Source of the DNA: Candidatus Heimdallarchaeota archaeon
Lineage (GTDB): Archaea > Asgardarchaeota > Wukongarchaeia > Wukongarchaeales > JBHIFL01
Direction of reading: 5' to 3'
Assembly: GCA_046761065.1 (NCBI GenBank)
Contig: JBHIFL010000012.1
Span: 1 to 64,000 of the forward strand
Length of the DNA stretch: 64,000 bases
A program made the position numbers and the translations under genes. The notes beneath the pieces were generated by a model. That model was not told the origin of the DNA, did not search any database, and saw only the letters and a list, made by a program, of their open reading frames with translations. Numbering within the stretch: the first letter of the stretch is position 1; each line of letters starts with the position of its first letter. This document shows positions 1,337 through 63,789 of this stretch, piece by piece.

Positions 1337-2691
1337 TCACAAAATCTTGAAAATAACATCAGTTAATCGTTCAAAAGGTTTGCCTATTAACTGATAGCCA
1401 CAAGTCCTCAAATATTTCCTTAAATTGAATTGCACCATCGCCTTTAGTATAGCAAATTTAAGCTTAGCTTCCGAAAAAGATGAGTTGAACAGCAATTTAT
1501 GTTTTATAAGGCGCGGATTTTTTGGTTCTTCCCAATTCTCGATTATTATTTTGTCTTTTACTCTTTCATAAAGAGGTGTTCCTGGAATGGGGTAGGGTAG
1601 GGTAAAAGATAGATAGTCCAAGGGAAGTGAAGACGCGAGCTTTACCGTGTCAAGTATGGTTTCGTCATTTTCACCGGGATACCCTACGATGAAAAATGCG
1701 CCGACTTGAATTCCAGCTTGCTTAGTTATAGACACTGTTTTTCTAGCTTATTTGATGGTTATTTGTTTATTCATAAGAGCTAAAATGGAGTTATTTCCAG
1801 ACTCGATGCCGTAAAATACGCGTACACATCCAGCTTTCTTCATTTTGTTAGCTAATTCTTTGTCTATTGTATCCACTCTAGAAAGGCACTCCCAATCGAT
1901 TTTTACGCCTCTTCGAATGATCTCGTTGCATATGCCTATGATTCTTTCCCGGTTAATAGTAAAGCAGTCATCGACAAACCATATTCTATCATATCTAAGC
2001 GCAAGTACCATTTCCATTTCATCAACGATGTTCGCCGCTGATCTAATTCTAAAATGGTTGCCAAAAACTGGGCGACTGCAGAAATCACAATTGAAAGGAC
2101 AGCCTCTAGACGTTAACATAGAGGTAATCGTATAACCAAATTTTTTTGCGTACTGATCCTTGTAAGCTAGGTTATCTAACAACCCTCTGGCCGGAAACGG
2201 TATGTTGTCCAAGTTCTGAATGAATTCTCTTGGGGGAGTACGTTTAATCTTACCCTTTTCCTTGTATATGATTCCCTTCACTCTTGATAAATTAGAGTTG
2301 TTCTCCACACTTTGGACTAGATCAAGCATGGTTTCCTCGCCTTCTCCGATGACTACAACATCAAAGTTTTGAAGGAAATCCTTCGGACTCGATGTAGGTA
2401 GTGGTCCACCAGTAACAAGCAATTCACAGTCTTCTCTAAGGATTTTAGCCAATTGTATGGTACTCTCTTTCATCGAGAACATGGAGTAGATGCCAATTAC
2501 TTTAGAATTTGAACGCCAAATTTTTTCTAATGCCTTTTTTTGCGTGAGAAATGTGCAGTCAACTAAGTCGACTGAAATATTGTGTTGTTTTAATACGCAG
2601 CTATGTAACCTAATCCGAGGGGGGGAAACCGGAAAATCGGTTTGTCACGCGGAGGGCGAAAATACGGATAAACCAAAGTGACGGTTGTCAT
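1337..2691 (-). pseudogene. B12-binding radical SAM protein, disrupted
   Basis: CPFNCDFC motif in 1748-2482. The N-terminus MTTVTLVYP...PPLGLGYIAAY starts at ATG 2691 and frameshifts near 2590. An in-frame TAA at 1748-1750 separates the C-terminal part (1337-1735). Confidence 0.8.
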
Positions 2692-3299
2692 CTCAGCGAA
2701 TTTACCCCCAAAATTTCAATTTCATATTCAAATACAGAGTGTTTCGGATTAACTTCGTAGTCTAATCCCACCCAGTCTAACCAGCCGTCTAAAGCCTCTC
2801 GACCTCTACGCAAAAGACTGTTCTTCATCCTCCTTAAACGGAAGCCGACTCTGCCGTTAAGATCTGTTATGCTCGCCCACTTGGCTTCAATCCGATCCCA
2901 CGCACCAATCTCTTTTTCAACCAATTCCGTGCCATTTGAATCCAAGTATCTTCGGAAGAACGTCGATCCCTGCTCATTTAAAACAAAAATCTTTTGGAGA
3001 TTTTCTCTCTTTAAACAGTTAAAATCGACTTTCACTAAGATGTGATCTCCCCTTATGCTATAAGTTACAATTACCTTCCCTATAGGTGTAGTTGTTATAA
3101 ATCTGGTGTGAACTCCCATTTTCATAGTTAGTTCTTTGATTATGAGAAATCGGAAGTGCCTATGCTTCTGATAGAGTTCCGCTATGTATCTAAATACGGT
3201 TCGAATTTTTCGGTTTTTTTGGGGCATAAAACAACATTTTGGGCATAAATTAGCATCACTATCGCTTGGAAAATATTGGAGATGATGATAAATCCACAA
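2688..3299 (-). CDS. hypothetical protein, probably a 5'-truncated remnant
   Basis: Protein-like ORF whose stop overlaps the ATG of the radical SAM pseudogene; the 5' part looks broken. Confidence 0.4.
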   Translation of the reverse strand: MWIYHHLQYFPSDSDANLCPKCCFMPQKNRKIRTVFRYIAELYQKHRHFRFLIIKELTMKMGVHTRFITTTPIGKVIVTYSIRGDHILVKVDFNCLKRENLQKIFVLNEQGSTFFRRYLDSNGTELVEKEIGAWDRIEAKWASITDLNGRVGFRLRRMKNSLLRRGREALDGWLDWVGLDYEVNPKHSVFEYEIEILGVNSLR

Positions 3300-3455
3300 A
3301 AGCCTTAGGTACTCCAGGATTTTGGGCAGTTAAGATCATTATTTCCATAGCTACGAAAATACTACTCCTCATCATTTCGGTGGGAATAAATCGGGGAGTC
3401 CATATAATCATTTTTCCGAAAATTTCTGCCCATTGTAATTGGTTCCTTTTCCATC

Positions 3456-3812
3456 TTAGAACGAAAGGACATGATGACTTTCCATGACCCACTTAGCAAG
3501 TTCCCTCATGGTTCCTATCTCTACGCTTTCCACAAGATCCTCCTAGCCCAACCCTCTCGCTTTTAGACATGCGCCGCAAGCCCGGACGTTTCCGTCTTTC
3601 CTAATGAGGTCAGTCAACATCTTTTCCAAGTTATAGTAGCCTTCAGGTGGTTCTTGTCCTTTTTTTGCAATAAACACCACGTCTCCAAGGAGGAAAACAT
3701 TGATTTTCGATTTAATTACCGCAGATGTTAAAGTTAAAGCTAATCTTAGAGCGTTCCAAGGCCGTTCTATCCCATACGGTGCGTCATTGATGATAATTGT
3801 AATGGTTTCCAA
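3456..3812 (-). pseudogene. DsrE/YchN-family sulfur relay protein with in-frame TAG
   Basis: APYG...FLLGDVV...CGACLKARG motif. The frame continues past TAG (3543-3545) as EDLVESVEIGTMRELAKWVMESHHVLSF to TAA at 3456. Confidence 0.75.
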
Positions 3813-4746
3813 TCATAACATCGTTCTTAATTTGTAGATATCGTCCTCGTCTTTTGTGAAAATAAAGATTACCTATCCTTATCTAGTTCATTGCATCACC
3901 TCATCTACAAGCTCTTTACTTTTGCTTTGTTTCCTAAGAAGCTGAATTCCCTCTGGAGTTAACTAATAATACTACAGTCTTTGCCTTCAAGGATCTTCCC
4001 ATCAGGATCTCCTAAAGAAAATAAAACGAGTACTAAAAGAGGAAGGTCCCTTCTACATTATCACCTACGAATGGGAAGATGGTTTAGTTTGGAGTGTCAT
4101 AATCTCTCTTTATTTGCTTATTCTTCGAACCGAGACATATGCCAGCGTTTCTGAATTACAAAAGGACCTAAATATAACAACAAGGTGGATTTCAATTCAC
4201 TGAGATAGATGGCACCTTTTACCAAACTGAGTTATGCAAGGAAATATCAACGATTAACTGAATTGATGATTAACATCAAGCCTACGGGCATTCTTTCACG
4301 AGAATTAGCGTGGATGGAGCCAGTACTTCGAGTTCCATTTCCTGGATAGTATTTGAGGGTCTCTTCATTCAGTTTCGTGCTCAACGGACCACGATGTGAT
4401 CAGTCTCTTGCTGCTTTGTGGGATGGATGAACCCGCTGAAGTCTTACCGGATACAAGTATCTCAATCCGGAAGGCAAATCCTTATCCCAATTTCCTGTAT
4501 ATTTCCCCGAAACTCTCTATAAAAGATTAAATGAACCCTGAAGTGGATGATAATCACGATTTCATCTCGAAACGGTGTAAGATGGGAGTTACTGCTCTTT
4601 TGGTTTAAAAGTCCACTATTCCCTTATTCCCTTATTGTCTGTTAGTTTTTGTGCTCAAACATTATTCTTTTATATTATAAGTAAATTATCACTATGTGTA
4701 TCATATCATAAGATCAAACACATCAAATAAAAATGGAGATTGCAAA

Positions 4747-5589
4747 ATGGTGTTAGCAAGTTTTGTGATTGCTCTTCGCGAAGGGATTGAAGCCGCCTTG
4801 ATTATAGGCATCATCTTAGCCTATCTCAAAAAGATTCAGCAAACCCGACATAATAAACATGTTTACCTCGGACTAGGTTTAGCGATTATCGCAAGTATCG
4901 TAGTGGCCCTTGGCTTTGAACTGCTGGCAGGTGGGTTTACGGGTACTAACGAAGAGGTATTTGAAGGCCTTGCCTCCCTTACCGCAGTGGTCGTCCTAAC
5001 GTACATGATTTTTTGGATGGATCGAAACAGTCGCCGTCTAAAGGGGGAGTTGCAGGAAAAAATCGATCTGGCTATCACCCAAAGACAATTGTACGGTCTA
5101 GTGAGTCTAGCGTTCTTTGCCGTCTTTCGGGAAGGCCTCGAGACTGTCCTCTTTCTGGCTGGAGTCCGCTTTGCAGCAGAATCCACACAAGAGACCATCA
5201 TTGGAGGAGCTGGAGGGTTGCTAGTAGCCGCCATCCTTGGCTACATTGTCATCCAGGGAAGTATTGAGCTAAACCTTCGAAAGTTTTTCCGGATCACAGG
5301 CGTTGTTTTGCTGATTTTTGCCGCAGGACTCTTCGCCTTTGGGGTCCACGAGCTGATCGAGGCAGGGTGGCTCCCTCCAGGACTGGGAGGAGAACGCGTA
5401 TACGATATCAGCCATCTACTCAGTGATAAAAGCACAGTAGGCAGTTTTCTCCGCGCATTGGTCGGGTATAACGATAATCCCTTTTTCTGGGAAGCGATCG
5501 CCTATGTCTTCTTTTGGATCGCCATCGGGATGGTGTTAATCTGGTTAAATCGGAGAGCACCCCCATCCAAAATGCCACTGACTGCTTAG
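4747..5589 (+). CDS. FTR1/EfeU-family iron permease
   Basis: Two RExxE motifs (LREGIEA, FREGLET) and about 7 TM segments; likely start MVLASF at 4747. Confidence 0.9.
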   Translation: MVLASFVIALREGIEAALIIGIILAYLKKIQQTRHNKHVYLGLGLAIIASIVVALGFELLAGGFTGTNEEVFEGLASLTAVVVLTYMIFWMDRNSRRLKGELQEKIDLAITQRQLYGLVSLAFFAVFREGLETVLFLAGVRFAAESTQETIIGGAGGLLVAAILGYIVIQGSIELNLRKFFRITGVVLLIFAAGLFAFGVHELIEAGWLPPGLGGERVYDISHLLSDKSTVGSFLRALVGYNDNPFFWEAIAYVFFWIAIGMVLIWLNRRAPPSKMPLTA

Positions 5590-5802
5590 GCTCAAAAGGA
5601 CAAGGATAATCCAATCCTAGTCCTGATTTTCTTTCCACTCATTTTCTCTTGTGAGTACTTGCACTATGAAGGTGCAATTTTTTCATTATTTGAATTTGGA
5701 TTGAGTTCTTAATTCATTTTATAAGTAGTATTTGTTTTATTATTTTATCTGGAATTATTCAGGATATCATCATTTACCTTCCCACCCCGGACATGGTTTC
5801 AT

Positions 5803-6480
5803 TCAGTGTTTCACCACCCGGAGCATAACCTGCCACTCCAGATTCTCCTTGTGGGGGTCAATTAGCACATACCGCCCCTTCGTGCCGTGCCGCGGGTCCC
5901 CCAGCGCGGAACTGGCCCCGCACACCTGGGCGTTTGGATCGCAGACTGGAATCCCGAAGTGGCCCGTGATCAGCCAGTCTTCCCACCGGAATCCACGCAG
6001 CAACGGATGGGGCTTCTTGACAAGTTGTCTTTTCAGAAGGACTAAAGCACGAGTATTTCGAATCCCCCCGTTCAATTCGATTGCCTTTTCCAACCCTAAC
6101 CCATTGCCATGAGCGAGATACACATCATTCGCACCACACCAAAGCCGCCCACTGTCTCGCACCGTGAACCCTGCCCTCCATAACCGCCGATCGATGCTGG
6201 CATCATGGTTCCCCCGGAGCAACACGGTCTTCTGCAGTAATCCCATTGCCTCTAACTCGTCTCGCACTTCAAAGAAGCACCGCCACGATTCTTCCTCTCC
6301 CTGTGAGGGGTACCGCAGCTCAATGGTGTCACCTAGCAGGAAGAGGGCCCCGAGCACCTCCCGGATCCGCCAGAGTTCCTCCACGTAGATCGGATAATGG
6401 GATCGGTCGTCTCCGATATGGAGATCAGCCATGGCCGCAATTTTCAACTCCTCCTCAAATCGTATCGGGTCACTGGTCAT
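5803..6480 (-). CDS. calcineurin-like metallophosphoesterase
   Basis: DLH, GD, GNHD, HG and GHFG motifs; ATG 6480 follows a GAGGAGG RBS just after the helicase stop. Confidence 0.85.
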   Translation of the reverse strand: MTSDPIRFEEELKIAAMADLHIGDDRSHYPIYVEELWRIREVLGALFLLGDTIELRYPSQGEEESWRCFFEVRDELEAMGLLQKTVLLRGNHDASIDRRLWRAGFTVRDSGRLWCGANDVYLAHGNGLGLEKAIELNGGIRNTRALVLLKRQLVKKPHPLLRGFRWEDWLITGHFGIPVCDPNAQVCGASSALGDPRHGTKGRYVLIDPHKENLEWQVMLRVVKH

Positions 6481-6484
6481 GTCT

Positions 6485-8773
6485 TCATCCTCCTCGTTGT
6501 CTAAAAAACGCTCGGAGCCGCTCATGGGCTCTTTTGGAATAACTGACGGGGAAGGTGTTCACGTCGACGCATCCTTCGCAATATCTCCGACAGGGACAGC
6601 CCCTCACCCGCTCCCGGACCACCGCTAAGATCTCTTCCGCATGGTCAAAAAGCTGCTTGGCACCCCCCATGGGCGCCCCACGATCTAACATCGCCAATTG
6701 CCACCTGTTCCCCTTGCCGCGTAGCAGCTCCACTTCCAGTCCGGACGGATCAAGACCCAACCGGTCTTGCGCCGCCTTCATGACCACCGCTCCCAGATGG
6801 GTGAACTCGTCTCTGCCAAACCACGCTCCCTTGAACCCCATGACAAGTCCTTCCGTCCAATATCGCAAGACGCCCTCCCCTGCCGGGATCCGCTGCTGCA
6901 CCACTACCCGACCACTCCCCAGTTCCCGGATCCGTCGCCAGGTCGGCTGCAAGGTGACCTCGACTTCGCCGAACCACGCGACCACCCGGTCCCCAACCCC
7001 TCGTGCGGTCCCACGCCCTGTCCTTACCTCTCTATCCACATAATTCTCACTGTACCATGCCTTCTCTGCAGGTTCCACTACAATCGTATCCTCTTGAATC
7101 TCTACCACCCGCCAAACCTCCCCTCTTAGGACCAAATAATCGCCTTTCCGCCCCTGCCGAGCCGCTTTCCACATATCGAGGTAACCTATCACCTGATTAG
7201 CCCGCGTGACCACCGCCAGCTCCACTTGAGCCGTACGAAACCGCTGAGCGAAGTACTCAGGGGCACTCCGATCTAGATGGATCTGGAACTGGTGCCGCCT
7301 TTTCCGGACCTTCCCCTCCACCAGCAGCTCCGTCAGAACCTCCTCCACCTTGGCTTCCAGATACTCCGCAGCGGTGTGCGGGAACACCCACCTCAGGTCT
7401 CGCTCGGTGAGCCCGAGGGCTCCACACAACAACAGGGCCATCTTCAAAATCTTCTCGCTGAAAAACTCATACCGAACTGGGTCGGGCTGGAGGGTCCGGA
7501 CCAGGGCTTGTAACTGGCGGGGATTGGCTAGGTAGTAGGTGTCTGGCTGCCGCCGCGGCGCTAAGAACCAGAAGACGTGCCCCTCCCGTTCGGGGTCCCG
7601 CGCCACTCGCATGACCACTTGGTGCACTCCCCGTTTCCCCCCACTTGGATACCCGATGATCACCACCAGATCCAGTTCCCCGAAGTTGACTCCCGCCTCC
7701 ACCGCCCGGGTCACCAACAGCCCCCGCAACTCTCCCCTCCGGAACTGTTTGACCGTTTCCCGGGTCTCCGCCCGTGTCAGCCCGCCATGCACGAGGCCAA
7801 AGTTCCGCCGCGTCAGCTCCTCTACGATCGCCACCCGCTCCAAGAGGAACTTGTTGTCCGCATAGATCACCACACGCGCCGTGGGGTAGATCTCCTCATC
7901 TAAGAGTTTGCGCAGAAACCGGTCAAATGTCGTCACCTCCCCTCCCTCCTTGGCCCTGAGTCCCGTCCCCTGACTGTAGACGAAGACTTGGATCCTTCCA
8001 TGCTTTGCTGGACCAGTAACTACCCGCGCCTCGACCAGTGCTTCCCGCGCGAGTTCCTCCGCGTTGGGGATCGTTGCACTGTTGAACACAAATCGTACCT
8101 CCCGCCCTCGCTCCCGGTTGTACCGCTTGAGGATCCGGTATACCGCCAAGAGATACGCTAGGCTGTATGCTGAGTAGTAGTCGAGCTCATCGCAGATCAC
8201 CATCCATGGCGAGACCATCGCCTCCCCCCAACCCGTCTCGCCTCGTAAAAGCGCCCAAAACAGCGTATCCTTGTACATGTCCACTGTCATGGGGATGATG
8301 TCCACGTTCCCCTTCGCCACCTGCTCCCGCACCCGCCGCCGCTCCTCCCGACTCATGTCACTGGTATACCGTGCTATCCCGATCTGACCCCCTGTCAATT
8401 CGATATTGTGCTCCCGTAATCGTTCCTCTTGATCGAACAACAGCGCATTATTCGGAAATAAGTAGATCACCGGCCGCCGCACCTCCCCCTCCTCCCCTTC
8501 TTCGCCCTGTTTTTGCCTTAGGACTCGTTCAAACGCCAAGAAAACGGTCGCCTCCGTTTTCCCAGCTCCGGTCCCCGCGACATGTAAGATATCATACCGC
8601 TTCACCTTTTCGACAAAGACTGCTTGATTCTCTAGCACCCTCCATCCATATTTCTCCAGAATCTTCGGCCCTAAGTATTGGAGCACTGCTCCCCACGCCA
8701 CCTCAGTCAACTCACCCACTGTTCGCTCATGAACTGCGTACGCCAGGGGCTTATCCAGCACCAGGCCTTTCAC
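6485..8773 (-). CDS. SF2 helicase with C-terminal DUF1998-like Cys4 domain (Hrq1/MrfA/SftH-like)
   Basis: Q motif, AGTGAGKT, DELD, SAT, TRAVEAGVN, degenerate motif VI QVVMRVAR and C-terminal CPCRRYCEGC. The GTG start overlaps the upstream TGA. Confidence 0.85.
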   Translation of the reverse strand: MKGLVLDKPLAYAVHERTVGELTEVAWGAVLQYLGPKILEKYGWRVLENQAVFVEKVKRYDILHVAGTGAGKTEATVFLAFERVLRQKQGEEGEEGEVRRPVIYLFPNNALLFDQEERLREHNIELTGGQIGIARYTSDMSREERRRVREQVAKGNVDIIPMTVDMYKDTLFWALLRGETGWGEAMVSPWMVICDELDYYSAYSLAYLLAVYRILKRYNRERGREVRFVFNSATIPNAEELAREALVEARVVTGPAKHGRIQVFVYSQGTGLRAKEGGEVTTFDRFLRKLLDEEIYPTARVVIYADNKFLLERVAIVEELTRRNFGLVHGGLTRAETRETVKQFRRGELRGLLVTRAVEAGVNFGELDLVVIIGYPSGGKRGVHQVVMRVARDPEREGHVFWFLAPRRQPDTYYLANPRQLQALVRTLQPDPVRYEFFSEKILKMALLLCGALGLTERDLRWVFPHTAAEYLEAKVEEVLTELLVEGKVRKRRHQFQIHLDRSAPEYFAQRFRTAQVELAVVTRANQVIGYLDMWKAARQGRKGDYLVLRGEVWRVVEIQEDTIVVEPAEKAWYSENYVDREVRTGRGTARGVGDRVVAWFGEVEVTLQPTWRRIRELGSGRVVVQQRIPAGEGVLRYWTEGLVMGFKGAWFGRDEFTHLGAVVMKAAQDRLGLDPSGLEVELLRGKGNRWQLAMLDRGAPMGGAKQLFDHAEEILAVVRERVRGCPCRRYCEGCVDVNTFPVSYSKRAHERLRAFFRQRGG

Positions 8774-11700
8774 TTACTCTCCCTCCTCAACATCGCCTCG
8801 ACGCCTCCTAACACACTTCCCAGCTCTCCTACTATCCCTTTCGGCACACCCGCCACCTCCTTCGCATACTCGACTAAGATTCGCCGCATCCGCTCTAAAA
8901 CCCCCGCCGCTTCGTGTGCTGATTCCTTCCTCAGGATTACAAAGGGGCTATACTGGTCCGGCTCCTGCTCCGCCATCGCCTCGATCAGTCCTTTAATGCT
9001 TTGCACGTGAGCCGCCTCCAACTCCCACAAACCCCGTCGCTTCTCCCCTTCCCAGACTACTTCCTGCTTCAAGAGATCCTCCACCAGTTGGTAGAGCTTC
9101 ACACTCCCCTGGGGGGTTGGAGCATACCTCGGGAACCCCCTTGTGGACTGATACCGCTCAAAGTCCTCTGGCAGCAACCACCCATCCAAGAACCCCACAC
9201 AAATCTCCTCCCAGAGGGTCGGCAATAGCGGCTCTCGCAAATCCAACGCCGCCGCCAACTCGGGGCGATCCTTGGGCCGGTGACTGAACAGCTCCACACT
9301 TTTATACCCTATCCCTACCTCTCCCCCATGGGCTCTTACCAGATTGGTCAGGACTTTCCCCGCCCGGTTCAACGCCGCGTCCAACATCGTCTTCGCCCCG
9401 GCCGCTCTTGTTGGGGTGGGGTAGATCCGATCCCCTCTTCGCCCAAACGTCCGCCCGATCCCTCCCACCACGATCCCTGTCCCTGGCCACCGCTCGCTCA
9501 ACGCCTCCCGAATCAGCCGATGCACCCCCTCACTCACCCGCCCCTCTAATGCCATGAACGCTAACCGATCAAACCGTCCCCGCTTGAGAAACCGGAGAAT
9601 TTTCACCACCTGCTCTTCGACTCGTTCGGTACGCTCCGCAGCTCTTCCGATTCGCCCGCATAAGACTGCGGTGGCCAACACCTGGTTAATTATCAGACCC
9701 CAGAAATACTTCCGCCGAAATTCTTCATACCACGGCTTCGCCTTTAACAGAGCTCGCCAAAACCCTACCGACGGCTGCTCATACTTCGGTGGCTTGATGT
9801 CCTTATAGGAATGGGGGATCCCTCGCGCCTCCAGCTCGTTTGCCAGTTCCTTCCTCCCATGCACTGTGACATACACATTCTCTATCTCATACGTAGCCGT
9901 GTGCTTCGGATACTTCACAAACAATTCGTTCCCCTCAATCCAGGCATCACATTCGTACGTAATCAACACAAACTCCCGCCCCGTTGTGGGCCACTCCGGC
10001 AGCTCCGGCTCATAGCCACAGTATATCTTGACCAGCCGCTTGATCTCCTCCTCAAAATCCACTTCCATCCGGGCAGTCCCATCGATCCTCCCCTTGAACT
10101 TCGCCCCGCATTCCTCGCACACCACCACGCGGCCCACCTCCGGTCGTTCTCGGAGTATCCCCTCGCAGACCTCCCGCAGACACCTCCACCCGTGCCTGAT
10201 GCCCTCCTCTCCCACCCACACGGCCTCCTGAAACGCCGTTAATGGAATCGTGGCCGCTTCCACCCGGGGGACGAACCACCCACACGCTTCCCGATTCTTC
10301 ACGTACCTCCCTTGCTCTGCTCGCCTTCTCATGAAGCGGTCCGTCGGGACTGCGCTCGGTCGCTCCTCTGCTATCTTATAAAAGGCTGCACAACCCCAGT
10401 CCTGGGCCGCGTAGAGCCCACACTCCCCACACCGCCTCCCCTCTCCCATTCCCCCTACCAGACACCCCGCCTCCGGCCACCCGCCGGGGTCAATCGCCAG
10501 CCCCAGTAACTCCACTTCCTCAACCTCGAGGACACACCCTTCTTCTCCCTCCAAACGGTAGTTACACCCCATACAACACTCGTCCTGACCCGCTCTCTCC
10601 TGTAACCCCCCGCTCTTCACTCGACACACAATCACCAACAGGGGCGCATATGGCCCGACTCGTACCTTCTGGCAGTGGATGGCCCGCAGCACCAGTAACG
10701 CTCCCCGTGGTAGCTCGCCAAATTGCTTGACCAGCGCTCGCACTCGCTTCGGGACAAAATATTTCATGAGGAGATAATGCACGCTCCGCTCAGGGATCCC
10801 CAGCTCCCTCGCTAAGTCCTGATACCACACCCGCCGCTGCGCTTCGACCTGCCCGGGATTCCCCCTCACGGGCGCGGTAATCCGCTTATTCAACCCTTTG
10901 ATAAGCTTATCCACCGCCTTCTGGAATTGAACCCGCCCAGGCAATAACACACCCCGTCTTTTTGGCGGCTCCGGCTCTTCTATTATCCCTCTTTTTGCTG
11001 ACGCTTCTCTACATGCCCGCGTCCCCTTTTTCGGCCGCCCCACCCCCTCCTTCAACACGGGCTTCCGCCTTGCCTTCTGCCCCGCTCGCACCATTTTGCC
11101 CGGGGACCCCACTTTTTTGGGCCGAACCCTGCCTTTTGCATCCCGCAACCGGGCTCCCGCCGCGCGTCCCCCGCTTCCAACAAACCTTCCCACCAGCTCC
11201 GCACGTTCCTTGTCTGTCAGCCGCTTCCCACCATGCTCTTCAAAGACCTGCAGACACGCTTTGGCGGAACTCGGCATCGCCGCTAACCGAGCCCCAAAGG
11301 GTGAACAGGAGAGCTTCCCCGCTTTATACACGCACCCCGTCTCCTTGGATCGGTACTTCTTTCGTCGAATACATCTCGCATCCCGGAGCTCCCGCAACGC
11401 CGCGTTCGCTCCTTTTACAAAATATTTCCAGGGCTCCGTATAGGGCGCCGCCCTGTACTCCCGGATCAATTCGGTGAGGATGGGATAGTTGCTCTCCACT
11501 TGTTCCTGGAGCTCTCGCTTCGTATTATATACCCGAGCCAGCTGCGGGATCAACTGTAGATAATACCCGGGAAACGTTTCCTTCAATCCACGCCGAAACT
11601 CCTTCTTCGTCCGTGCCCGCCGGTAGAACTCTAAGACATAATCGTGGAGCTCCTCAAAATACCACTTCGTGCATGTCGGCAGCCCTAACGCCCCTTGCTT

Positions 11701-12678
11701 CAACCAGTACTCCTTCTTCCGCCCACAGTTCACCAACAAGACGTGACCTCCTTCCCCCACCTCCTGCGCAATCCGTCCTAGCTCCAACGGGTCCCGAAAG
11801 TCTTTGCAGTCGACCACCACTACTTCTTCAACCTTTCCCACCGCCTCCCCAAACCTCCGCACCCGCCCCGCCTCATCCCTCCGAATCCATTTCGAATACA
11901 CGCAGAATCTCTTGCCCTCTCGCTCCAATCGCCTCCACACCCATGACAGCCTCATATCCATCCGCTTAATAGTTGCCATCCCCGTACCCCGCCGCCCTAC
12001 CATCTTGACCTCAAACCCCCGATCCTCCAACCACCACTGGAATAGTTCCGGATTCCCATGTCGGATCAAACATACCACTCGCGGACACCGCCGCCCAAGC
12101 TTGGCCAGCTCCATGATGCAATTGGCGTATAGCCGCCATTGTTGGCTCATTAGCCCTTCGAGAAACCCCACGAAAATCACCCGCTTCACTCCCAAGCCCC
12201 TTCTTCCTACCTTCACTAACCGGTTGTAAAACGCCTTTGCTCCAAATACTAACAGCTTCGTTCGTTCCTCCCCCTCTTTGTCTTTGTCCCCCGCCAGTTC
12301 TTCCTCCAAGACATCCTTCGGCCCCATCTCCTTAAGCTCAAATTCCGCTGGTTCTAGGTTCAGTTCAAGCACTTCTATAAGCCGCGCCTTGGCGTAGGCC
12401 GAACAGACGATCATATATGCCCTCCTTCTTCGCCGCCGCGTCCTTCCTCCTTCCCCTCGTGTTTTACCCCGCGGTCCCGGCCACCTTGCCCGCGCCCGCG
12501 CTCGTCGCTCCCTTATCTTGTCTTTTTCGGCATACATGGATAGGAGCCCTGTCAACGCCGCGTCTGACCTCTGCTGTTTTGGCGAACAGACCACCAAACA
12601 CCGGTGATCCTCCAACAGCTCCATCCCGAGCTCGTGCAGTTCCTGCCTTCCTAACCGCTCCAAACATTCAAGCAGCAT
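8770..12678 (-). CDS. cas1: giant Cas1 fusion protein: inactivated Ski2-like helicase / winged helix / HTH / Cys clusters / Cas1
   Basis: The C-terminal ~8900-9980 follows the Cas1 pattern: beta domain FVLITYECDAWIEGNELFVK...ARGIP, then MALEG, FGRR, LDAALN, FSH, LDLREP, EDF, YSPF. The N-terminus keeps a Hel308-like layout (GNPELFQWWL, ETF, CSPFG) without Walker motifs. Confidence 0.75.
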   Translation of the reverse strand: MLLECLERLGRQELHELGMELLEDHRCLVVCSPKQQRSDAALTGLLSMYAEKDKIRERRARARARWPGPRGKTRGEGGRTRRRRRRAYMIVCSAYAKARLIEVLELNLEPAEFELKEMGPKDVLEEELAGDKDKEGEERTKLLVFGAKAFYNRLVKVGRRGLGVKRVIFVGFLEGLMSQQWRLYANCIMELAKLGRRCPRVVCLIRHGNPELFQWWLEDRGFEVKMVGRRGTGMATIKRMDMRLSWVWRRLEREGKRFCVYSKWIRRDEAGRVRRFGEAVGKVEEVVVVDCKDFRDPLELGRIAQEVGEGGHVLLVNCGRKKEYWLKQGALGLPTCTKWYFEELHDYVLEFYRRARTKKEFRRGLKETFPGYYLQLIPQLARVYNTKRELQEQVESNYPILTELIREYRAAPYTEPWKYFVKGANAALRELRDARCIRRKKYRSKETGCVYKAGKLSCSPFGARLAAMPSSAKACLQVFEEHGGKRLTDKERAELVGRFVGSGGRAAGARLRDAKGRVRPKKVGSPGKMVRAGQKARRKPVLKEGVGRPKKGTRACREASAKRGIIEEPEPPKRRGVLLPGRVQFQKAVDKLIKGLNKRITAPVRGNPGQVEAQRRVWYQDLARELGIPERSVHYLLMKYFVPKRVRALVKQFGELPRGALLVLRAIHCQKVRVGPYAPLLVIVCRVKSGGLQERAGQDECCMGCNYRLEGEEGCVLEVEEVELLGLAIDPGGWPEAGCLVGGMGEGRRCGECGLYAAQDWGCAAFYKIAEERPSAVPTDRFMRRRAEQGRYVKNREACGWFVPRVEAATIPLTAFQEAVWVGEEGIRHGWRCLREVCEGILRERPEVGRVVVCEECGAKFKGRIDGTARMEVDFEEEIKRLVKIYCGYEPELPEWPTTGREFVLITYECDAWIEGNELFVKYPKHTATYEIENVYVTVHGRKELANELEARGIPHSYKDIKPPKYEQPSVGFWRALLKAKPWYEEFRRKYFWGLIINQVLATAVLCGRIGRAAERTERVEEQVVKILRFLKRGRFDRLAFMALEGRVSEGVHRLIREALSERWPGTGIVVGGIGRTFGRRGDRIYPTPTRAAGAKTMLDAALNRAGKVLTNLVRAHGGEVGIGYKSVELFSHRPKDRPELAAALDLREPLLPTLWEEICVGFLDGWLLPEDFERYQSTRGFPRYAPTPQGSVKLYQLVEDLLKQEVVWEGEKRRGLWELEAAHVQSIKGLIEAMAEQEPDQYSPFVILRKESAHEAAGVLERMRRILVEYAKEVAGVPKGIVGELGSVLGGVEAMLRRESK

Positions 12679-13003
12679 GTGATTACCTAATATATTTGGG
12701 AAATCGCTTTTTAAGGTTCAACAGTGTTTTAGAAAATCTTACCATATGTTTTTCACTGTAGAAATATTCCTTGTTAGTCTTTGAAAATACAAAATCCCCC
12801 ATGAGTATCCTCCTTCCATGGAAAAAAGTAAATTGTTGCTATCTACATTTGATATGGCCTGTATTATTCTGGCAATTCTCCAGACACCTACCCTGATTTG
12901 GTTCAATGGGGTTACAGAGTCAATGTTAACACTTTCACCCAGAATGGATCTCTTTTTACTCACCCTTGGGTGGTTTTTATATTACCAAGCCTACAACCCT
13001 CTG

Positions 13004-13444
13004 ATGACTCCCTCCTATCAAACTCCTCAAGAGGCCGCAGTTGCCCGACTCTTGGATTCTTTACCCCTCCGCTACCGCTACCGATGGGTTCTCCGTAATA
13101 GGCCGTACGCAAATTACGTGTTCGATTTCTTTATTCAGGGCGGCCTCATCCTCGAGTGCAGCGCCACTAAAAATGCCTCCTCAAAGGCAGTTAATTGGCT
13201 CTATCAGAAAGCCGGTCTTGTTAATCGCCGCTTCTGGGTGGTGAAACGCCGCTTTAACCCCCCTCCCATTACTGTTTTCCTTTTTGAAGCGCCCCGCGCC
13301 CACCCAAACCGTATTCACAACGCCATCCAAACCATGACCAATTTCGGCGAGCTGGCGTCAACAGACCGAATCTTTGTCCACTTCTCTGAATTAGAGACTT
13401 TCCTTACAAAATGGAGCTCACGGGAAGATATCAACCCCATTTGA
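13004..13444 (+). CDS. PD-(D/E)xK / DUF559-like nuclease, paralog 1
   Basis: TPQE...YVFDFFIQGGLILEC. ATG 13004 lies ~25 nt after a TTTTTATAT TATA-like box, so it is preferred over the ORF-track start at 12818. Confidence 0.6.
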   Translation: MTPSYQTPQEAAVARLLDSLPLRYRYRWVLRNRPYANYVFDFFIQGGLILECSATKNASSKAVNWLYQKAGLVNRRFWVVKRRFNPPPITVFLFEAPRAHPNRIHNAIQTMTNFGELASTDRIFVHFSELETFLTKWSSREDINPI

Positions 13445-13731
13445 AACTGTAGCATGAGATAAAGCTCGCTTGTAATCGCATCATCGTGTTTATCCCAAAT
13501 TTCTTCTCCTTTCTTCTTTTTTCCTTCAAATATACTTGATCCCTTCTCTTGTAGCTTTGTTGGCGTTTCCTTCTTCTAGTCCTTCACTTGGATAATAAGC
13601 CCAAAATGCCCTTCTAGATCAAAATAGAACTTGCTAGAAGGCTTCAAAGACTTATATATATCTATGGAACTAGTATGATGTGATACCATAGGAATCCATT
13701 GGAATCCTCCTTGAAAACAAAGGTGTGGTGC

Positions 13732-14376
13732 ATGCAAACTAAGAAATTATCCAATGACGACTCGGTAAAAGCGGAAAAGGGGATCTTACGTCACACAATT
13801 CTACACCAACCCTCCACCGCTCAAGAATGGACGATTGTCCAACTCTTGCAGGAGCTAGACCTGAAATTCATGCATCCTTGGTTTGTTTATATCCAAAATC
13901 GCCGCTATCTCTTCGATTTTCTCATCGTGCCAGATGTGGCTGATTTCTCGTCCACTGACATCACGGTGCGAGTCCGTGAATCTGACTTGGAAACGACCGG
14001 GCCTGGATGTGATCAGAAGCGGTTGACAAGATTCCGGGATGACCTCCACTCAGATACTACACCTTATAAGGTGGAAAATGCTTATGTTATCGAGTGCGGC
14101 GTTTCGCAAAGTTGTCCCTCCAAGGCACGGGCCTGGCTCCGTTCTAAGGCTGCCCTCATTGACCTACGATTTCGCGCTCTCAAACTCTTCTTTCACTCAT
14201 CTCCTTTCACCTTGATGCTGCTCGAAGGCCCATATTTCTCTCAAAACGACTTTAATTCGAACCTAGAACCTCTATACTTTACTGATAAGCTGGTAACTTC
14301 CATAGATCAGCTGCAAGATTTCCTAAGAGGATTGAAGGCACGGTTGAGAGGATCTTCTCAGACGGGAGGTGTCTGA
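13732..14376 (+). CDS. PD-(D/E)xK / DUF559-like nuclease, paralog 2, with ~49-aa in-frame insertion
   Basis: TAQE...YLFDFLI...YVIEC...SKARAWLRSKA aligns with paralog 1 (SKAVNWLYQKA). ATG 13732 follows AGGTG. Confidence 0.6.
   Translation: MQTKKLSNDDSVKAEKGILRHTILHQPSTAQEWTIVQLLQELDLKFMHPWFVYIQNRRYLFDFLIVPDVADFSSTDITVRVRESDLETTGPGCDQKRLTRFRDDLHSDTTPYKVENAYVIECGVSQSCPSKARAWLRSKAALIDLRFRALKLFFHSSPFTLMLLEGPYFSQNDFNSNLEPLYFTDKLVTSIDQLQDFLRGLKARLRGSSQTGGV
13941..14084 (+). repeat. structured ~140-nt repeat, copy A (inside nuclease gene)
   Basis: Core 13990-14028 matches 16147-16185 at 37/39 positions; the flanking hairpins are conserved in position. Confidence 0.85.
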
Positions 14377-14378
14377 AT

Positions 14379-15227
14379 TTGGGGAAGGAAGATGTTCAAT
14401 GCATAAAAAAAATAAAAAAAGTAGTTTCCGTGGTTGCTTGGACACCCATTGCTAAGCCTTTGAACGGAACGCTCCCACGCTCGAAGAACTCCACAATGCT
14501 ACGACTGGCTCCAGTGGAGTACACCTACAAGCATGGAAAAGAAGTCAAGTCCGGTCGGGTGGAGACCTATCTTATCAAAGGGCTGCGCGGCGCTCTGCGG
14601 CACTCAGCTATGAGCCTCTTACGGGAGGCTGGCCTGGAAGTATGCCATTCTAGTGATAAAGAGGCAACCCAAGAAGGTAAAGCCCTGATCCCCGAGGGGT
14701 TTCACCCATTGGGTGCATGCGAGAAGGACCCCTGCATCCTGAATCGTATTTTTGGATGGATGCGCCATCAATCCCGGATTGCTGTGTATGCTGATCCCAT
14801 CGGGTGTCCGAAACACAAGACCTTTGCTGCAGATGTCCCCCTCCAACCCGTCCAAATCGCCACCGAGAACCGGGTCGCTCTGACCTTTGACCACGAAGCA
14901 ATTCAGGATTTTGGTGAACGTTATTTCTCCGGAGAATTCCGGTTTCACATCGATGTCTCCGCTTTGGAGCCGGAGGAACTTGGGCTAGTCATTCAATCTG
15001 CTATGACCCTCCACCGCCTTGGTCGGGGCTTTAATGCTGGCTATGGCCATATTAAGATCCAACAACTTACCCTTGAACAAGTGACAACTGAGCGCCGACT
15101 CCAGTGGGATGGAAATGGAAGCTTTCGTGTCGAAGAAACGGAAAGTCGTGAACCACTCCACCAAGAAGTCTTAGACGCGTTGCAAGCTTTTCAACTGTAC
15201 CTTAACGCACAAACTGGGGAGTCTTAA
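14379..15227 (+). CDS. cas7: Cas7-family RAMP (Csm3/Csf2-like)
   Basis: KGLRGALRH, Cys-rich C...CEKDPCILNRIFG, thumb TENRVAL, ELGLVI and G-rich loop LGRGFNAGYGHIKI. TTG start after GGAGGTG. Confidence 0.85.
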   Translation: MGKEDVQCIKKIKKVVSVVAWTPIAKPLNGTLPRSKNSTMLRLAPVEYTYKHGKEVKSGRVETYLIKGLRGALRHSAMSLLREAGLEVCHSSDKEATQEGKALIPEGFHPLGACEKDPCILNRIFGWMRHQSRIAVYADPIGCPKHKTFAADVPLQPVQIATENRVALTFDHEAIQDFGERYFSGEFRFHIDVSALEPEELGLVIQSAMTLHRLGRGFNAGYGHIKIQQLTLEQVTTERRLQWDGNGSFRVEETESREPLHQEVLDALQAFQLYLNAQTGES

Positions 15228-16136
15228 ATGTATTGTGTGTTAATTGGACATACATCAACTCCTATTGTCAAACCCAAGGCGGAATTTTGTTGGAAGGGGA
15301 CCCTTGTCCGAATTAGTCACACCCTCATCTCCACCCCTGACCATCTCTCCACCATTTACACTCGACCTCCCTTGCGCCGCTATTATGGGAAACTCACCGT
15401 GGGGAAACCTTCCTTCCTGTACGTCTATAGGTGTTACTATGGATATGTCTACGTGATCTTTCCTGTCCGAACACCAAGAGCAGGCGCTCGGAAACTGAAA
15501 TACCTCCTCCAGCATGATCAAATGGGGCGTTTTGCTCAGGAAGGCATGGGCCGCGTCCGATGGCTCGGCGGCTTCTTTACTGCTACACTCCCCCCCAAAC
15601 CACCTCGACCCCCCAAACTTCGAATCAGAAAAGGCATGCCCCCAGATCTGCCTGAGTCCATCAAAAAACTCCTCACACTCGCGATTCTCCATGATCTCGT
15701 TCATTGTAACCGGCACCAAAGCAAACTGATGTCTGAAGTCCAGATCCAAGATGAAGAGCTCCGTCGGCTTGCCAAATCTCATCACGCCCTCACAATGAAT
15801 CCACTTTTACTTACCTTGCAAAAATATGATCGAATAGCGGCTAGAATTACCCGTAAGCATTGGTCTCCCATTAAAACCCGTTACTCGTGGCGGGCGAATA
15901 AAAAAGTCGATGTTCAGCATTTAGTACGACAAATTGAGGCGCATCAAGACAATATCTTAACTCTGTATAAAATCATAAAGGCTTCCAAGGAGTTGGATCT
16001 GCTGAATGAGAGTTTAGAGTATGGCCACAGTTCCCTCCGCCAACATCTTCTCATTATCGCTAATTTAATCGTGACAGATTGGTTGAAGGAGCGTTTAACT
16101 CTTTCATCAGCTGGAATTACGGTTGAAACGCCGTGA
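15228..16136 (+). CDS. Cas5-like RAMP fused to circularly permuted HD nuclease
   Basis: G-rich loop MGRFAQEGMGRVRW, a Pro-rich linker, then LHD...HH...YD and a C-terminal SLRQHLL. ATG directly follows the cas7 stop. Confidence 0.7.
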   Translation: MYCVLIGHTSTPIVKPKAEFCWKGTLVRISHTLISTPDHLSTIYTRPPLRRYYGKLTVGKPSFLYVYRCYYGYVYVIFPVRTPRAGARKLKYLLQHDQMGRFAQEGMGRVRWLGGFFTATLPPKPPRPPKLRIRKGMPPDLPESIKKLLTLAILHDLVHCNRHQSKLMSEVQIQDEELRRLAKSHHALTMNPLLLTLQKYDRIAARITRKHWSPIKTRYSWRANKKVDVQHLVRQIEAHQDNILTLYKIIKASKELDLLNESLEYGHSSLRQHLLIIANLIVTDWLKERLTLSSAGITVETP

Positions 16137-16240
16137 ATTCGACGGAGAAACGACCGGCCCTGGATGTGATCAGAAGTGGTTGACAGGGTTTCAGGAAGGA
16201 CATCCCCGCGAATACAGCCGTGTAAGCGGTTGAAAACTTA
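16098..16240 (+). repeat. structured ~140-nt repeat, copy B (3' end of cas5-HD and intergenic)
   Basis: Direct repeat of 13941-14084 at an offset of 2157 bp; three hairpins, two with GNRA-like loop sequences. Confidence 0.85.
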
Positions 16241-16639
16241 TTAAGAGTAATATAGGTCATGCATTCCCGAAACATGGCCAAACCATGTCTTTTTTTCCAG
16301 TTCTTCAGCGAGGACTGTCTCCCATCGGTCTTTATAGGTGTGTTTTAAGTGCGCAAGCCGCGAAATCTCATCGAGGATGATTTCGAGGAGGTTGGGCAGT
16401 AACATGTACTCCTCTTCGTCTAGCTCCTCACTCTTGAGGAACTCATCGATGGCGAGCCCAACGAGCACCTGCGGGTCGGAGTAGTCGGTCTGGCGAAGGA
16501 TTTCGTAGCTATAGAAGGCGATTTGGGACATGAGATGCCCATAAGGGTATAACTCTTCAAAAAACCCGACATAATTCCCAATAAGGTCTTCAATCCATTT
16601 ATTGCGGGGGTATCCCTTCGGAGGCATTTTGTCTTTCAA
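16241..16639 (-). CDS. acidic helical hypothetical protein
   Basis: 132-aa ORF with protein-like composition, convergent with cas5-HD; no motif recognised. Confidence 0.6.
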   Translation of the reverse strand: MKDKMPPKGYPRNKWIEDLIGNYVGFFEELYPYGHLMSQIAFYSYEILRQTDYSDPQVLVGLAIDEFLKSEELDEEEYMLLPNLLEIILDEISRLAHLKHTYKDRWETVLAEELEKKTWFGHVSGMHDLYYS

Positions 16640-62850: not shown

Positions 62851-63789
62851 TCAAAAGACCTTAACTTTCAGAACTTTCAGCTCTCTTCCCGCCGTCCCAA
62901 CCACCACTTCATTTTTGTTATCACAATCAAGGTCACCAACCACACAACACAAAATAGCTTCGTCAAAGTGATACTTACATAGCTGGGTGCCTAAAGCATC
63001 AATAATCCTCAAACTTTTGTCATAACAGCCTACGAGAAGTTCTTTTTGGCCATCTCCGGTGAGATCTTCCACAAAACTACATCGGACGACACCAAAGATG
63101 TTCAGATCCCATAACAGGTCTGTTAGTTGAAATACGCTTAGACTACCAGAAACAACTTCTTTTTTCCCATCTCCGGTGAGATCTTCCACAAAGCAATGAC
63201 AGACGGGGCGCGGAAAGGACTTTTGCCAAAGAAGATCCCCATTCAGGTCGAGTACTCTTAGGCTTTTATCATAACTCCCAACAAGGAGTTCATTTTCCCC
63301 ATCATTATTGCAATCTCCAACATAACAACTGAGCACTGCTTGCTTTAAGTGGAGTTCCCATATCCCTTTTCCCGCCCCATCAAGAATTTTTAGAGTCCCA
63401 TCATCTAACCCAATAAGGAGCTCATTAGTTCCATCCCCAAAAATATCACCCATGTAACAACACCGTATGGAATCATCATGGATTTGTTCCCAGAGTTTTA
63501 AACCATTCAGGTTCAAAGCGGTGAGGGTTCCGTCTGCGCACCCAGCAATCACTACGCCTTTCGGATCCCATGCGCTAGTTCCGATTGAACAACACCAAAT
63601 ACTATCTTCAAACTCGTGTGACCAGGCTTGATTGCCATAACCATCAAACATGCTCAATGTTGCATCTTCACTCCCAACAATAAGATCATGCTGTCTAGGA
63701 TCCCGTACCCCGACAGCGCAACATGTTACACTATCACCAAAAGTTCTCTTCCAGAATTCATTCAATTCCCAAAGAGGTCGCTGGGGCAA
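62851..63789 (-). CDS. FG-GAP-like beta-propeller protein
   Basis: Repeats DxxGDGxxELLVGxxDxxLR; no signal peptide apparent. Confidence 0.8.
   Translation of the reverse strand: MPQRPLWELNEFWKRTFGDSVTCCAVGVRDPRQHDLIVGSEDATLSMFDGYGNQAWSHEFEDSIWCCSIGTSAWDPKGVVIAGCADGTLTALNLNGLKLWEQIHDDSIRCCYMGDIFGDGTNELLIGLDDGTLKILDGAGKGIWELHLKQAVLSCYVGDCNNDGENELLVGSYDKSLRVLDLNGDLLWQKSFPRPVCHCFVEDLTGDGKKEVVSGSLSVFQLTDLLWDLNIFGVVRCSFVEDLTGDGQKELLVGCYDKSLRIIDALGTQLCKYHFDEAILCCVVGDLDCDNKNEVVVGTAGRELKVLKVKVF

Follow-up and report, generated by a model that had tools for sequence, protein, structure and literature searches.

An in-frame copy of a putatively structured repeat within a nuclease gene of an ARAMP-like module in an Asgard archaeon

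In a genome assigned to Candidatus Heimdallarchaeota, two nuclease genes of one family stand in tandem upstream of a gene for a Cas7-like RAMP protein. The second nuclease carries about 50 additional residues between its conserved Asp and Glu, and the DNA encoding these residues recurs downstream, at the end of an HD-domain gene. This arrangement raises the question of how a long repeat came to lie in the active-site hairpin of a nuclease, and what became of the gene that received it. We analyzed the locus within a stretch of 64,000 nucleotides (referred to as the window), to which all positions refer unless another contig is named.

Four closely packed genes occupy positions 12818-16136 of the plus strand, encoding two nucleases, a Cas7-like RAMP protein and a 302-aa protein with an HD motif. 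Nuclease paralog 1 (12818-13444, plus strand) has 208 aa and belongs to the same family as paralog 2, and it is free of the insert. Its first part (12818-12990) encodes a hydrophobic N-terminal extension of ~60 residues, which is absent from paralog 2 and most relatives. Paralog 2, the host of the insert (13732-14376, plus strand), has 214 aa when read from the ATG at 13732, where the database form (P0005) also starts; its longest open reading frame begins at the TTG at 13699. The Cas7-like RAMP protein (14379-15227, plus strand; 282 aa) is the only product of the four recognized by Pfam, NCBIfam and PADLOC, with matches to Pfam RAMPs (23.1 bits, cut-off 22.1), PADLOC Csm3 (E 1.6e-7) and TIGR03986 (E 2e-7). 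The last gene (15228-16136, plus strand; 302 aa), referred to here as the HD gene, appears to encode a fusion of a Cas5-like RAMP with a Cas10-type HD domain. Its Pfam HD match lies under the cut-off (E 0.051). In its predicted model, residues 142-302 resemble the HD domain of Csm1 (Z 6.9) and residues 1-125 resemble RAMP proteins (Z 5-6.7), all weak matches below Z 8, which split the model weakly but consistently into a RAMP-like N-terminal half and a Csm1-HD-like C-terminal half. The 1302-aa neighbor on the minus strand (8770-12678) has no match in Pfam, NCBIfam or PADLOC.

This island fits an ARAMP module, an array-less, type III-derived relative of CRISPR in Asgard archaea. In an article of 2020 in the CRISPR Journal (volume 3, page 156), Makarova et al. 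reportedly treat ARAMP and HRAMP as array-less, type III-derived CRISPR relatives. ARAMP systems are array-less and associated with PD-(D/E)xK nucleases (PMC12669027; PMC8730458). Most of their loci contain a divergent Cas1 homolog. The locus resembles ARAMP and HRAMP in its Cas7-like and putative Cas5-like/HD genes, its PD-(D/E)xK-type nucleases, the lack of a CRISPR array and its Asgard host, and the names of the homologs point to Heimdall- and Hodarchaeales-type bins. We found no short direct-repeat family within positions 1-30000, and the entire window holds only two long repeat families. Elsewhere in the window, three 52-nt direct repeats lie 117-132 nt apart at 63037-63337, inside the minus-strand ORF 62851-63789, and most likely reflect a repeat at the protein level.

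Of 400 Asgard genomes, 39 contain the HD protein family, frequently in multiple copies, and in ~20 retrieved loci its gene stands directly 3' of a Cas7-like gene. A profile search of the 400 genomes of the phylum found the nuclease family in 12, including the present one. Since the nuclease gene lies just upstream of a RAMP gene in several Asgard genomes, we regard this family as a regular partner of such modules. Fragments that comprise just the final 40-100 residues of the HD protein, frequently interrupted by stops, occur on their own in many Asgard genomes, as if module ends persisted or spread independently.

The insert in paralog 2 (copy A) was detected at 13924-14079 of the plus strand (nhmmer E 1e-53), and its parent-type counterpart (copy B) at 16068-16245 of the same strand (E 7e-63). 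The alignment between the two extends to about 13924-14079 versus 16068-16237. In its central part, a stretch of 66 nt (13974-14039 and 16131-16196) shows 83% identity, and a 39-nt core of copy A (13990-14028) matches copy B at 37 of 39 positions, with 2 mismatches; divergence between the copies is 17-30%. The earlier note on this DNA had placed the insertion at 13936-14082, which is right within ~6-12 nt of the homology limits and is now revised to an element at ~13924-14079 with net extra codons at about 13930-14076. The note had also drawn attention to the distance between the conserved Asp and Glu, and both the ORF translations and the family alignment agree with its values of 9 residues in paralog 1 and 58 in paralog 2 (D62 to E121 in the 214-aa form). 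The 49 extra codons coincide with copy A and are free of stops, as it had said. Only the frame of the gene is open across them, each of the other five frames being interrupted by 1-6 stops. Differences between copies A and B fall on codon positions 1, 2 and 3 in 7, 6 and 11 cases, with no third-position bias. A predicted tryptic peptide of paralog 2 is ESDLETTGPGCDQK.

The overlap of copy B with the end of the HD gene, noticed earlier as well, was confirmed. Copy B takes in the last 23 codons of the gene and its TGA (16134-16136), and then continues for ~105 nt to the stop of a convergent ORF (16241-16639). Within copy B, the segment 16077-16137, which contains the last codons of the HD gene, shows T/G variation at 16107 and several short alternative contigs in one sequencing run (X1).

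To place the insert in the nuclease family, we compared paralog 2 with its relatives, of which four were retrieved from 5.8 billion proteins; 13 family members came from 1.84 billion cluster representatives. In the alignment of 14 sequences, the protein of the window alone has residues between the two strands, and none of the 13 homologs carries the insert. The closest relative (P0006), which is 75-77% identical over the aligned columns, has a short hairpin. In the profile search, all family matches were contiguous, and no insert was found in those of the 11 other Asgard genomes. A third nuclease paralog in the present genome (contig C36) is likewise contiguous. Judged from these sequences, the insert is a lineage-specific insertion, since even an ortholog of 75-77% identity lacks it. 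The earlier note had claimed an insertion, as opposed to a segment carried by all orthologs, and this comparison upholds it. Searches for the core pattern of the element in metagenome and genome contig collections gave no matches, nor did searches for P0006 in metagenome contigs and for the nuclease alignment in genome contigs.

The source of the inserted DNA can be read from its copies. In this genome, nhmmer found four: copy B, on the intact HD gene; copy A; copy C, on contig C15; and copy D, on contig C30, which is decayed. Copies C and D, neither of which lies within a gene, include a longer piece of the HD gene's end and resemble relics of complete modules. The 39-nt core is well kept in copy C too. 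The insert opens with ~50 nt copied from the final codons of the HD gene (residues about 281-301) without a change of frame; what follows is a copy of the DNA downstream of that gene. Between copies A and B, a 12-nt gap preserves the frame, and a 1-nt difference throws the TGA of copy B out of frame in copy A. Because conservation of the HD family extends as far as this point, the copying ran from the end of the HD gene into the nuclease.

Two orthologs, both known from Logan assemblies only, show comparable protein tails. The HD ortholog (P0021, 79% identical) has no stop at the position of that in copy B and reads into the element in the frame of the insert (E 6e-5). The nuclease ortholog P0006, free of the hairpin insert, ends in a 45-residue C-terminal tail, which begins with the same HD-derived motif and is 57% identical to the translated insert over 37 residues (E 9e-12). 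We infer that P0006 and P0021 come from one sister organism. To judge from these protein tails only, the upstream copy in that organism seems to have the same 5' limit and to stand at the end of the nuclease gene instead of inside it.

The junctions give some indication of how the copy arrived. Beyond copies A and B, the similarity of the flanks does not exceed the chance level (p 0.66 and 0.99), so that a discrete unit was inserted and not a gene-conversion patch between similar flanks; homology-driven conversion with extended flanks is ruled out on the same ground. Guided homing through a donor tail that matches DNA beside the insertion found no support either, the 45-nt stretches that follow the two copies being unrelated. 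The sole microhomology is a 6-nt ATCGTG common to the left junctions. We found no inverted-repeat pair of at least 40 nt in the window, and no duplicated target was seen at the junctions. Aloposons, a known mobile element of Asgard archaea, were rejected too, their defining features being giant genes and tRNA sites. The unit may have been inserted by an integrase, for which the putative Cas1-like protein of the island is a candidate, or by microhomology-templated repair at ATCGTG.

Several known elements resemble this one in part. The omegaRNA of TnpB and IscB is a guide RNA whose sequence overlaps the associated effector gene at its 3' end. Similarly, the present element starts in the last codons of an effector gene, passes the stop and also exists as solo copies. 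However, it has no transposon ends, no TnpA or TnpB and no identified guide segment, and the associated proteins are RAMP and HD proteins, not RuvC. Like a repeat-spacer-repeat unit of CRISPR, the two copies are direct repeats bracketing DNA in a locus of Cas-derived genes; the difference is that they are 150-190 nt long instead of 25-40 nt, are 17% diverged, enclose 2 kb of genes and number two at the locus. Rickettsia palindromic elements and MITEs are foldable repeats of ~150 nt inserted in frame into protein genes (PMC10969869). The likeness to the Rickettsia elements lies in a foldable ~150-nt repeat in frame within a conserved ORF, with the host fold predicted to be kept and the addition placed in a surface loop. 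In contrast to those elements and MITEs, neither terminal inverted repeats nor a target-site duplication was seen here and there are four copies only; and the element of the window is tied to one gene system and partly derives from the coding end of a neighboring gene.

We then consider what the insertion has done to the nuclease. In the AlphaFold2 model built with the family alignment (mean pLDDT 78), most of the core is above 90, and the insert, at 41-52, lies between the strands 63-66 and 118-124; low pLDDT alone is no proof of a harmless loop. The trimmed model resembles PspGI (Z 10.7, rmsd 2.8 over 122 residues), Can2 (Z 10.0) and further PD-(D/E)xK nucleases, among 11 chains at Z of at least 8 led by restriction enzymes and by the nuclease domains of Can2 and Bax1. 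Foldseek alone returned nothing better than E 0.001 with the nuclease model. On the test for the PD-(D/E)xK superfamily, the restriction-endonuclease-like alpha/beta core is present. Asp62 and Glu121 are invariant in all 14 sequences, and two positions beyond the Glu, Ser, Gly or Thr stands in place of Lys. Paralog 2 retains every family-invariant residue in an unbroken frame of 214 codons, and its identity to the ortholog (75-77%) compares with 79% for the HD gene and 66% for paralog 1. Since the gene has stayed as close to its ortholog as the HD gene has, with the invariant residues kept, we favor the interpretation that the insert forms a tolerated surface loop, as far as a predicted model allows. 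The earlier note had proposed that the insert is either tolerated as a loop or removed at the RNA level. The model of the core and the retained residues favor the former, and the search at the borders described below lends no support to the latter.

The strongest alternative is that the insertion killed paralog 2. The gene would then be a recent pseudogene or a catalytically inactive remnant with a frame still open by chance, and paralog 1 would do the work. An insert between catalytic residues could abolish activity, and the adjacent paralog without an insert could cover the function. The position between the conserved Asp and Glu and the existence of that tandem paralog would suit such a fate, as would the lack of codon-position bias in the insert and the two solo copies (C and D) outside genes. 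However, the whole frame of 214 codons is intact with all invariant residues, and orthologous identity is as high as that of the HD gene. Moreover, copies A and B are 17-30% apart. The insertion therefore need not be a recent one, though copy A could stem from a closer copy that has been lost. We consider the loss of the enzyme possible but rather unlikely.

A second alternative attributes the insert to selection for the peptide, for example as a docking loop for the RAMP and HD proteins, with the nucleotide repeat merely its source. The same frame is open in copy A and in the tails of P0006 and P0021, and the three share a motif of the G-C-D-Q-K type. That motif, however, falls on the nucleotide core, whose conservation is just as high in copies B and C, which are non-coding; no synonymous bias was seen, and the predicted confidence of the loop is low. 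A gain of function of this kind appears very unlikely to us.

Even less probable is the excision of the insert after transcription or translation, through endonuclease splicing, a ribozyme-like reaction or protein splicing, which would restore a normal hairpin. A length divisible by three and an apparently folded element are compatible with it. However, archaeal bulge-helix-bulge motifs (two 3-nt bulges with a 4-bp helix between them) were not found at the insert junctions: the borders yielded 0 strict candidates, whereas random window pairs averaged 2.3, and 94% of such pairs equaled the best relaxed score. The element matches no Rfam family. An intein is unlikely, as 49 residues are far too few and the insert starts with Pro and is followed by Val, with no intein nucleophiles. 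Size and junction residues thus argue against an intein, and the border scan against a bulge-helix-bulge intron.

Finally, that a chimeric assembly across the repeat created an insert present in no cell has a negligible chance of being right, even though the genome was binned from a metagenome, with 8.2% contamination, and repeats can interrupt assemblies or join them wrongly, because single contigs of 7-48 kb in three sequencing runs cover 13400-16500 whole, a contig of a fourth run spans the insert, no alternative joint was seen, and unique nuclease sequence lies on both sides of the insert in one frame. All four runs belong to one hydrothermal-vent study, in which the genome reaches a word depth of ~20-40x; contigs of each carry the insert, and no joint skips it; the runs may be the source samples of the bin, so they exclude misassembly but do not represent an independent population. 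Copy A is real DNA and not an assembly artifact.

The copies of the element also share a predicted fold. RNAalifold on the four copies gave 34 consensus pairs, a fold derived from and tested on the same four copies, in which 89.6% of the cells are paired, compared with 26-44% when the partners are slid. Nine pairs have changes in both partners, where shuffles give 4.5 +/- 1.7. The copies, 50-71% identical, still hold 27-33 of the 34 pairs, copy A holding 33. These changes are suggestive of a common fold kept through compensatory substitution. The G-U pairs indicate the plus strand, which is the sense strand of the nuclease and HD genes. On the other hand, single-sequence folding energies are ordinary (z -0.4 to -1.0 for copies A, B and C on either strand, versus shuffles). 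Across the entire window, no Rfam family reached its gathering threshold, and the tRNA scan was also blank. Because the insert is in frame, the nuclease mRNA contains a sense-strand copy of the element. The proposal in the earlier note that this mRNA carries a structured RNA is thus plausible, the 33 pairs of copy A on the sense strand being consistent with it.

Repeats in related modules provide a context for this pair. In the present genome, the module on contig C36 (20643-23561) has its nuclease, RAMP and HD genes bracketed by 189-nt direct repeats, which are 83% identical, GC-rich and strongly folding (1657-1845 and 4366-4554 of the retrieved locus L077). The downstream copy overlaps the end of the HD gene. 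In this module, the nuclease and the RAMP protein share one open frame of 555 codons. Just 5' of the upstream element, two 98-nt direct repeats (80% identical) lie 189 nt apart at L077:1306-1403 and 1495-1592. The 189-nt element, referred to as type 2, has at least 36 copies in the genome and a conserved fold, and it directly follows HD genes or HD fragments on contigs C4, C15, C21, C25 and C115. On C115, a contig of 10 kb, we observed six type-2 copies and an HD-gene fragment at 1639-9036, spaced by 0.7-2.5 kb, which gives an array-like look. Among the 36 type-2 copies examined, a long open frame runs through one or two at most and no copy is shown to lie within a conserved gene, which marks copy A as exceptional for its placement in frame.

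A third element occurs in the genus g18, where 130-nt copies stand on each side of the HD gene (loci L079-L113) and number 23, 16 and 2 in genomes G040, G057 and G020. Its 5' hairpin is hypervariable yet always paired, and the remainder is nearly invariant. In this element, 96.4% of the cells are paired, compared with 42-52% when slid, and 36 cells have changes in both partners, where shuffles give 9.0 +/- 2.5 and none of 500 reaches 36. One match of this element falls in a different family (L046, genome G010). Its covariance model (R1) matched neither copy A nor copy B, even after the filters had been switched off, and the C36-type element likewise had no nhmmer match in the window. Since neither family matches the element of the window, the parallel with it is one of layout and not of demonstrated homology. 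In five genomes of the genus g41, the region 3' of the HD gene is not repeated, so the flanking layout is not universal. Flanking repeat pairs are nevertheless a recurring feature of these modules, a point that goes beyond the earlier note, as do the additional copies of the element and the HD-derived, in-frame start of the insert.

On the basis of these observations, we consider it fairly probable that the upstream copy of a structured, ARAMP-linked element landed in the nuclease ORF and is tolerated there as a loop. ARAMP modules of this kind would run from one or more PD-(D/E)xK-type nucleases through the Cas7-like RAMP to the Cas5-like/HD gene, and would end in a structured element of 130-190 nt that starts inside the last codons of the HD gene. 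A second, diverged copy would tend to stand upstream of the effector genes. At the present locus, that upstream copy would have been inserted as a discrete unit of ~150 nt into the beta-hairpin between Asp and Glu of paralog 2. The part from the HD tail kept its original frame and the remainder lacked, or has lost, its stops, and so the ORF stayed open. The predicted product is a nuclease with an otherwise intact core and a 49-residue loop that is probably disordered.

In-frame insertion of a repeat is in itself a known event, as the Rickettsia elements demonstrate, and what is new at this locus is an in-frame copy with a defined origin and defined limits. Its value lies mostly in its bearing on ARAMP systems, which have been catalogued only and whose function is putative. 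Reviews describe ARAMP as array-less, and their summaries of ARAMP and HRAMP name neither an RNA partner nor a repeat (PMC8730458; PMC12669027), whereas the present module has two long, putatively structured repeats, one of them in the nuclease ORF. We tentatively raise the idea, which we hold to be unlikely at present, that the RNA partner missing from the 'array-less' ARAMP is to be found in the long repeats, and that the flanking pair is functionally required as a processing, guide or integration unit for the RAMP and HD proteins or a Cas1-like integrase. If so, the nuclease mRNA would be bifunctional. Release of the RNA would cut the message and couple the level of the nuclease to RNA loading, and the insertion would record integrase-type copying of an element with defined ends.

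The locus can be regarded as a dated natural experiment, in which the element that ends the module was copied upstream of the effectors, apparently with the same 5' limit as in the sister organism, and the ORF survived. It argues that the element is a discrete unit, that the flanking pair is recurrent, and that the beta-hairpin of this nuclease family may accept ~50 residues.
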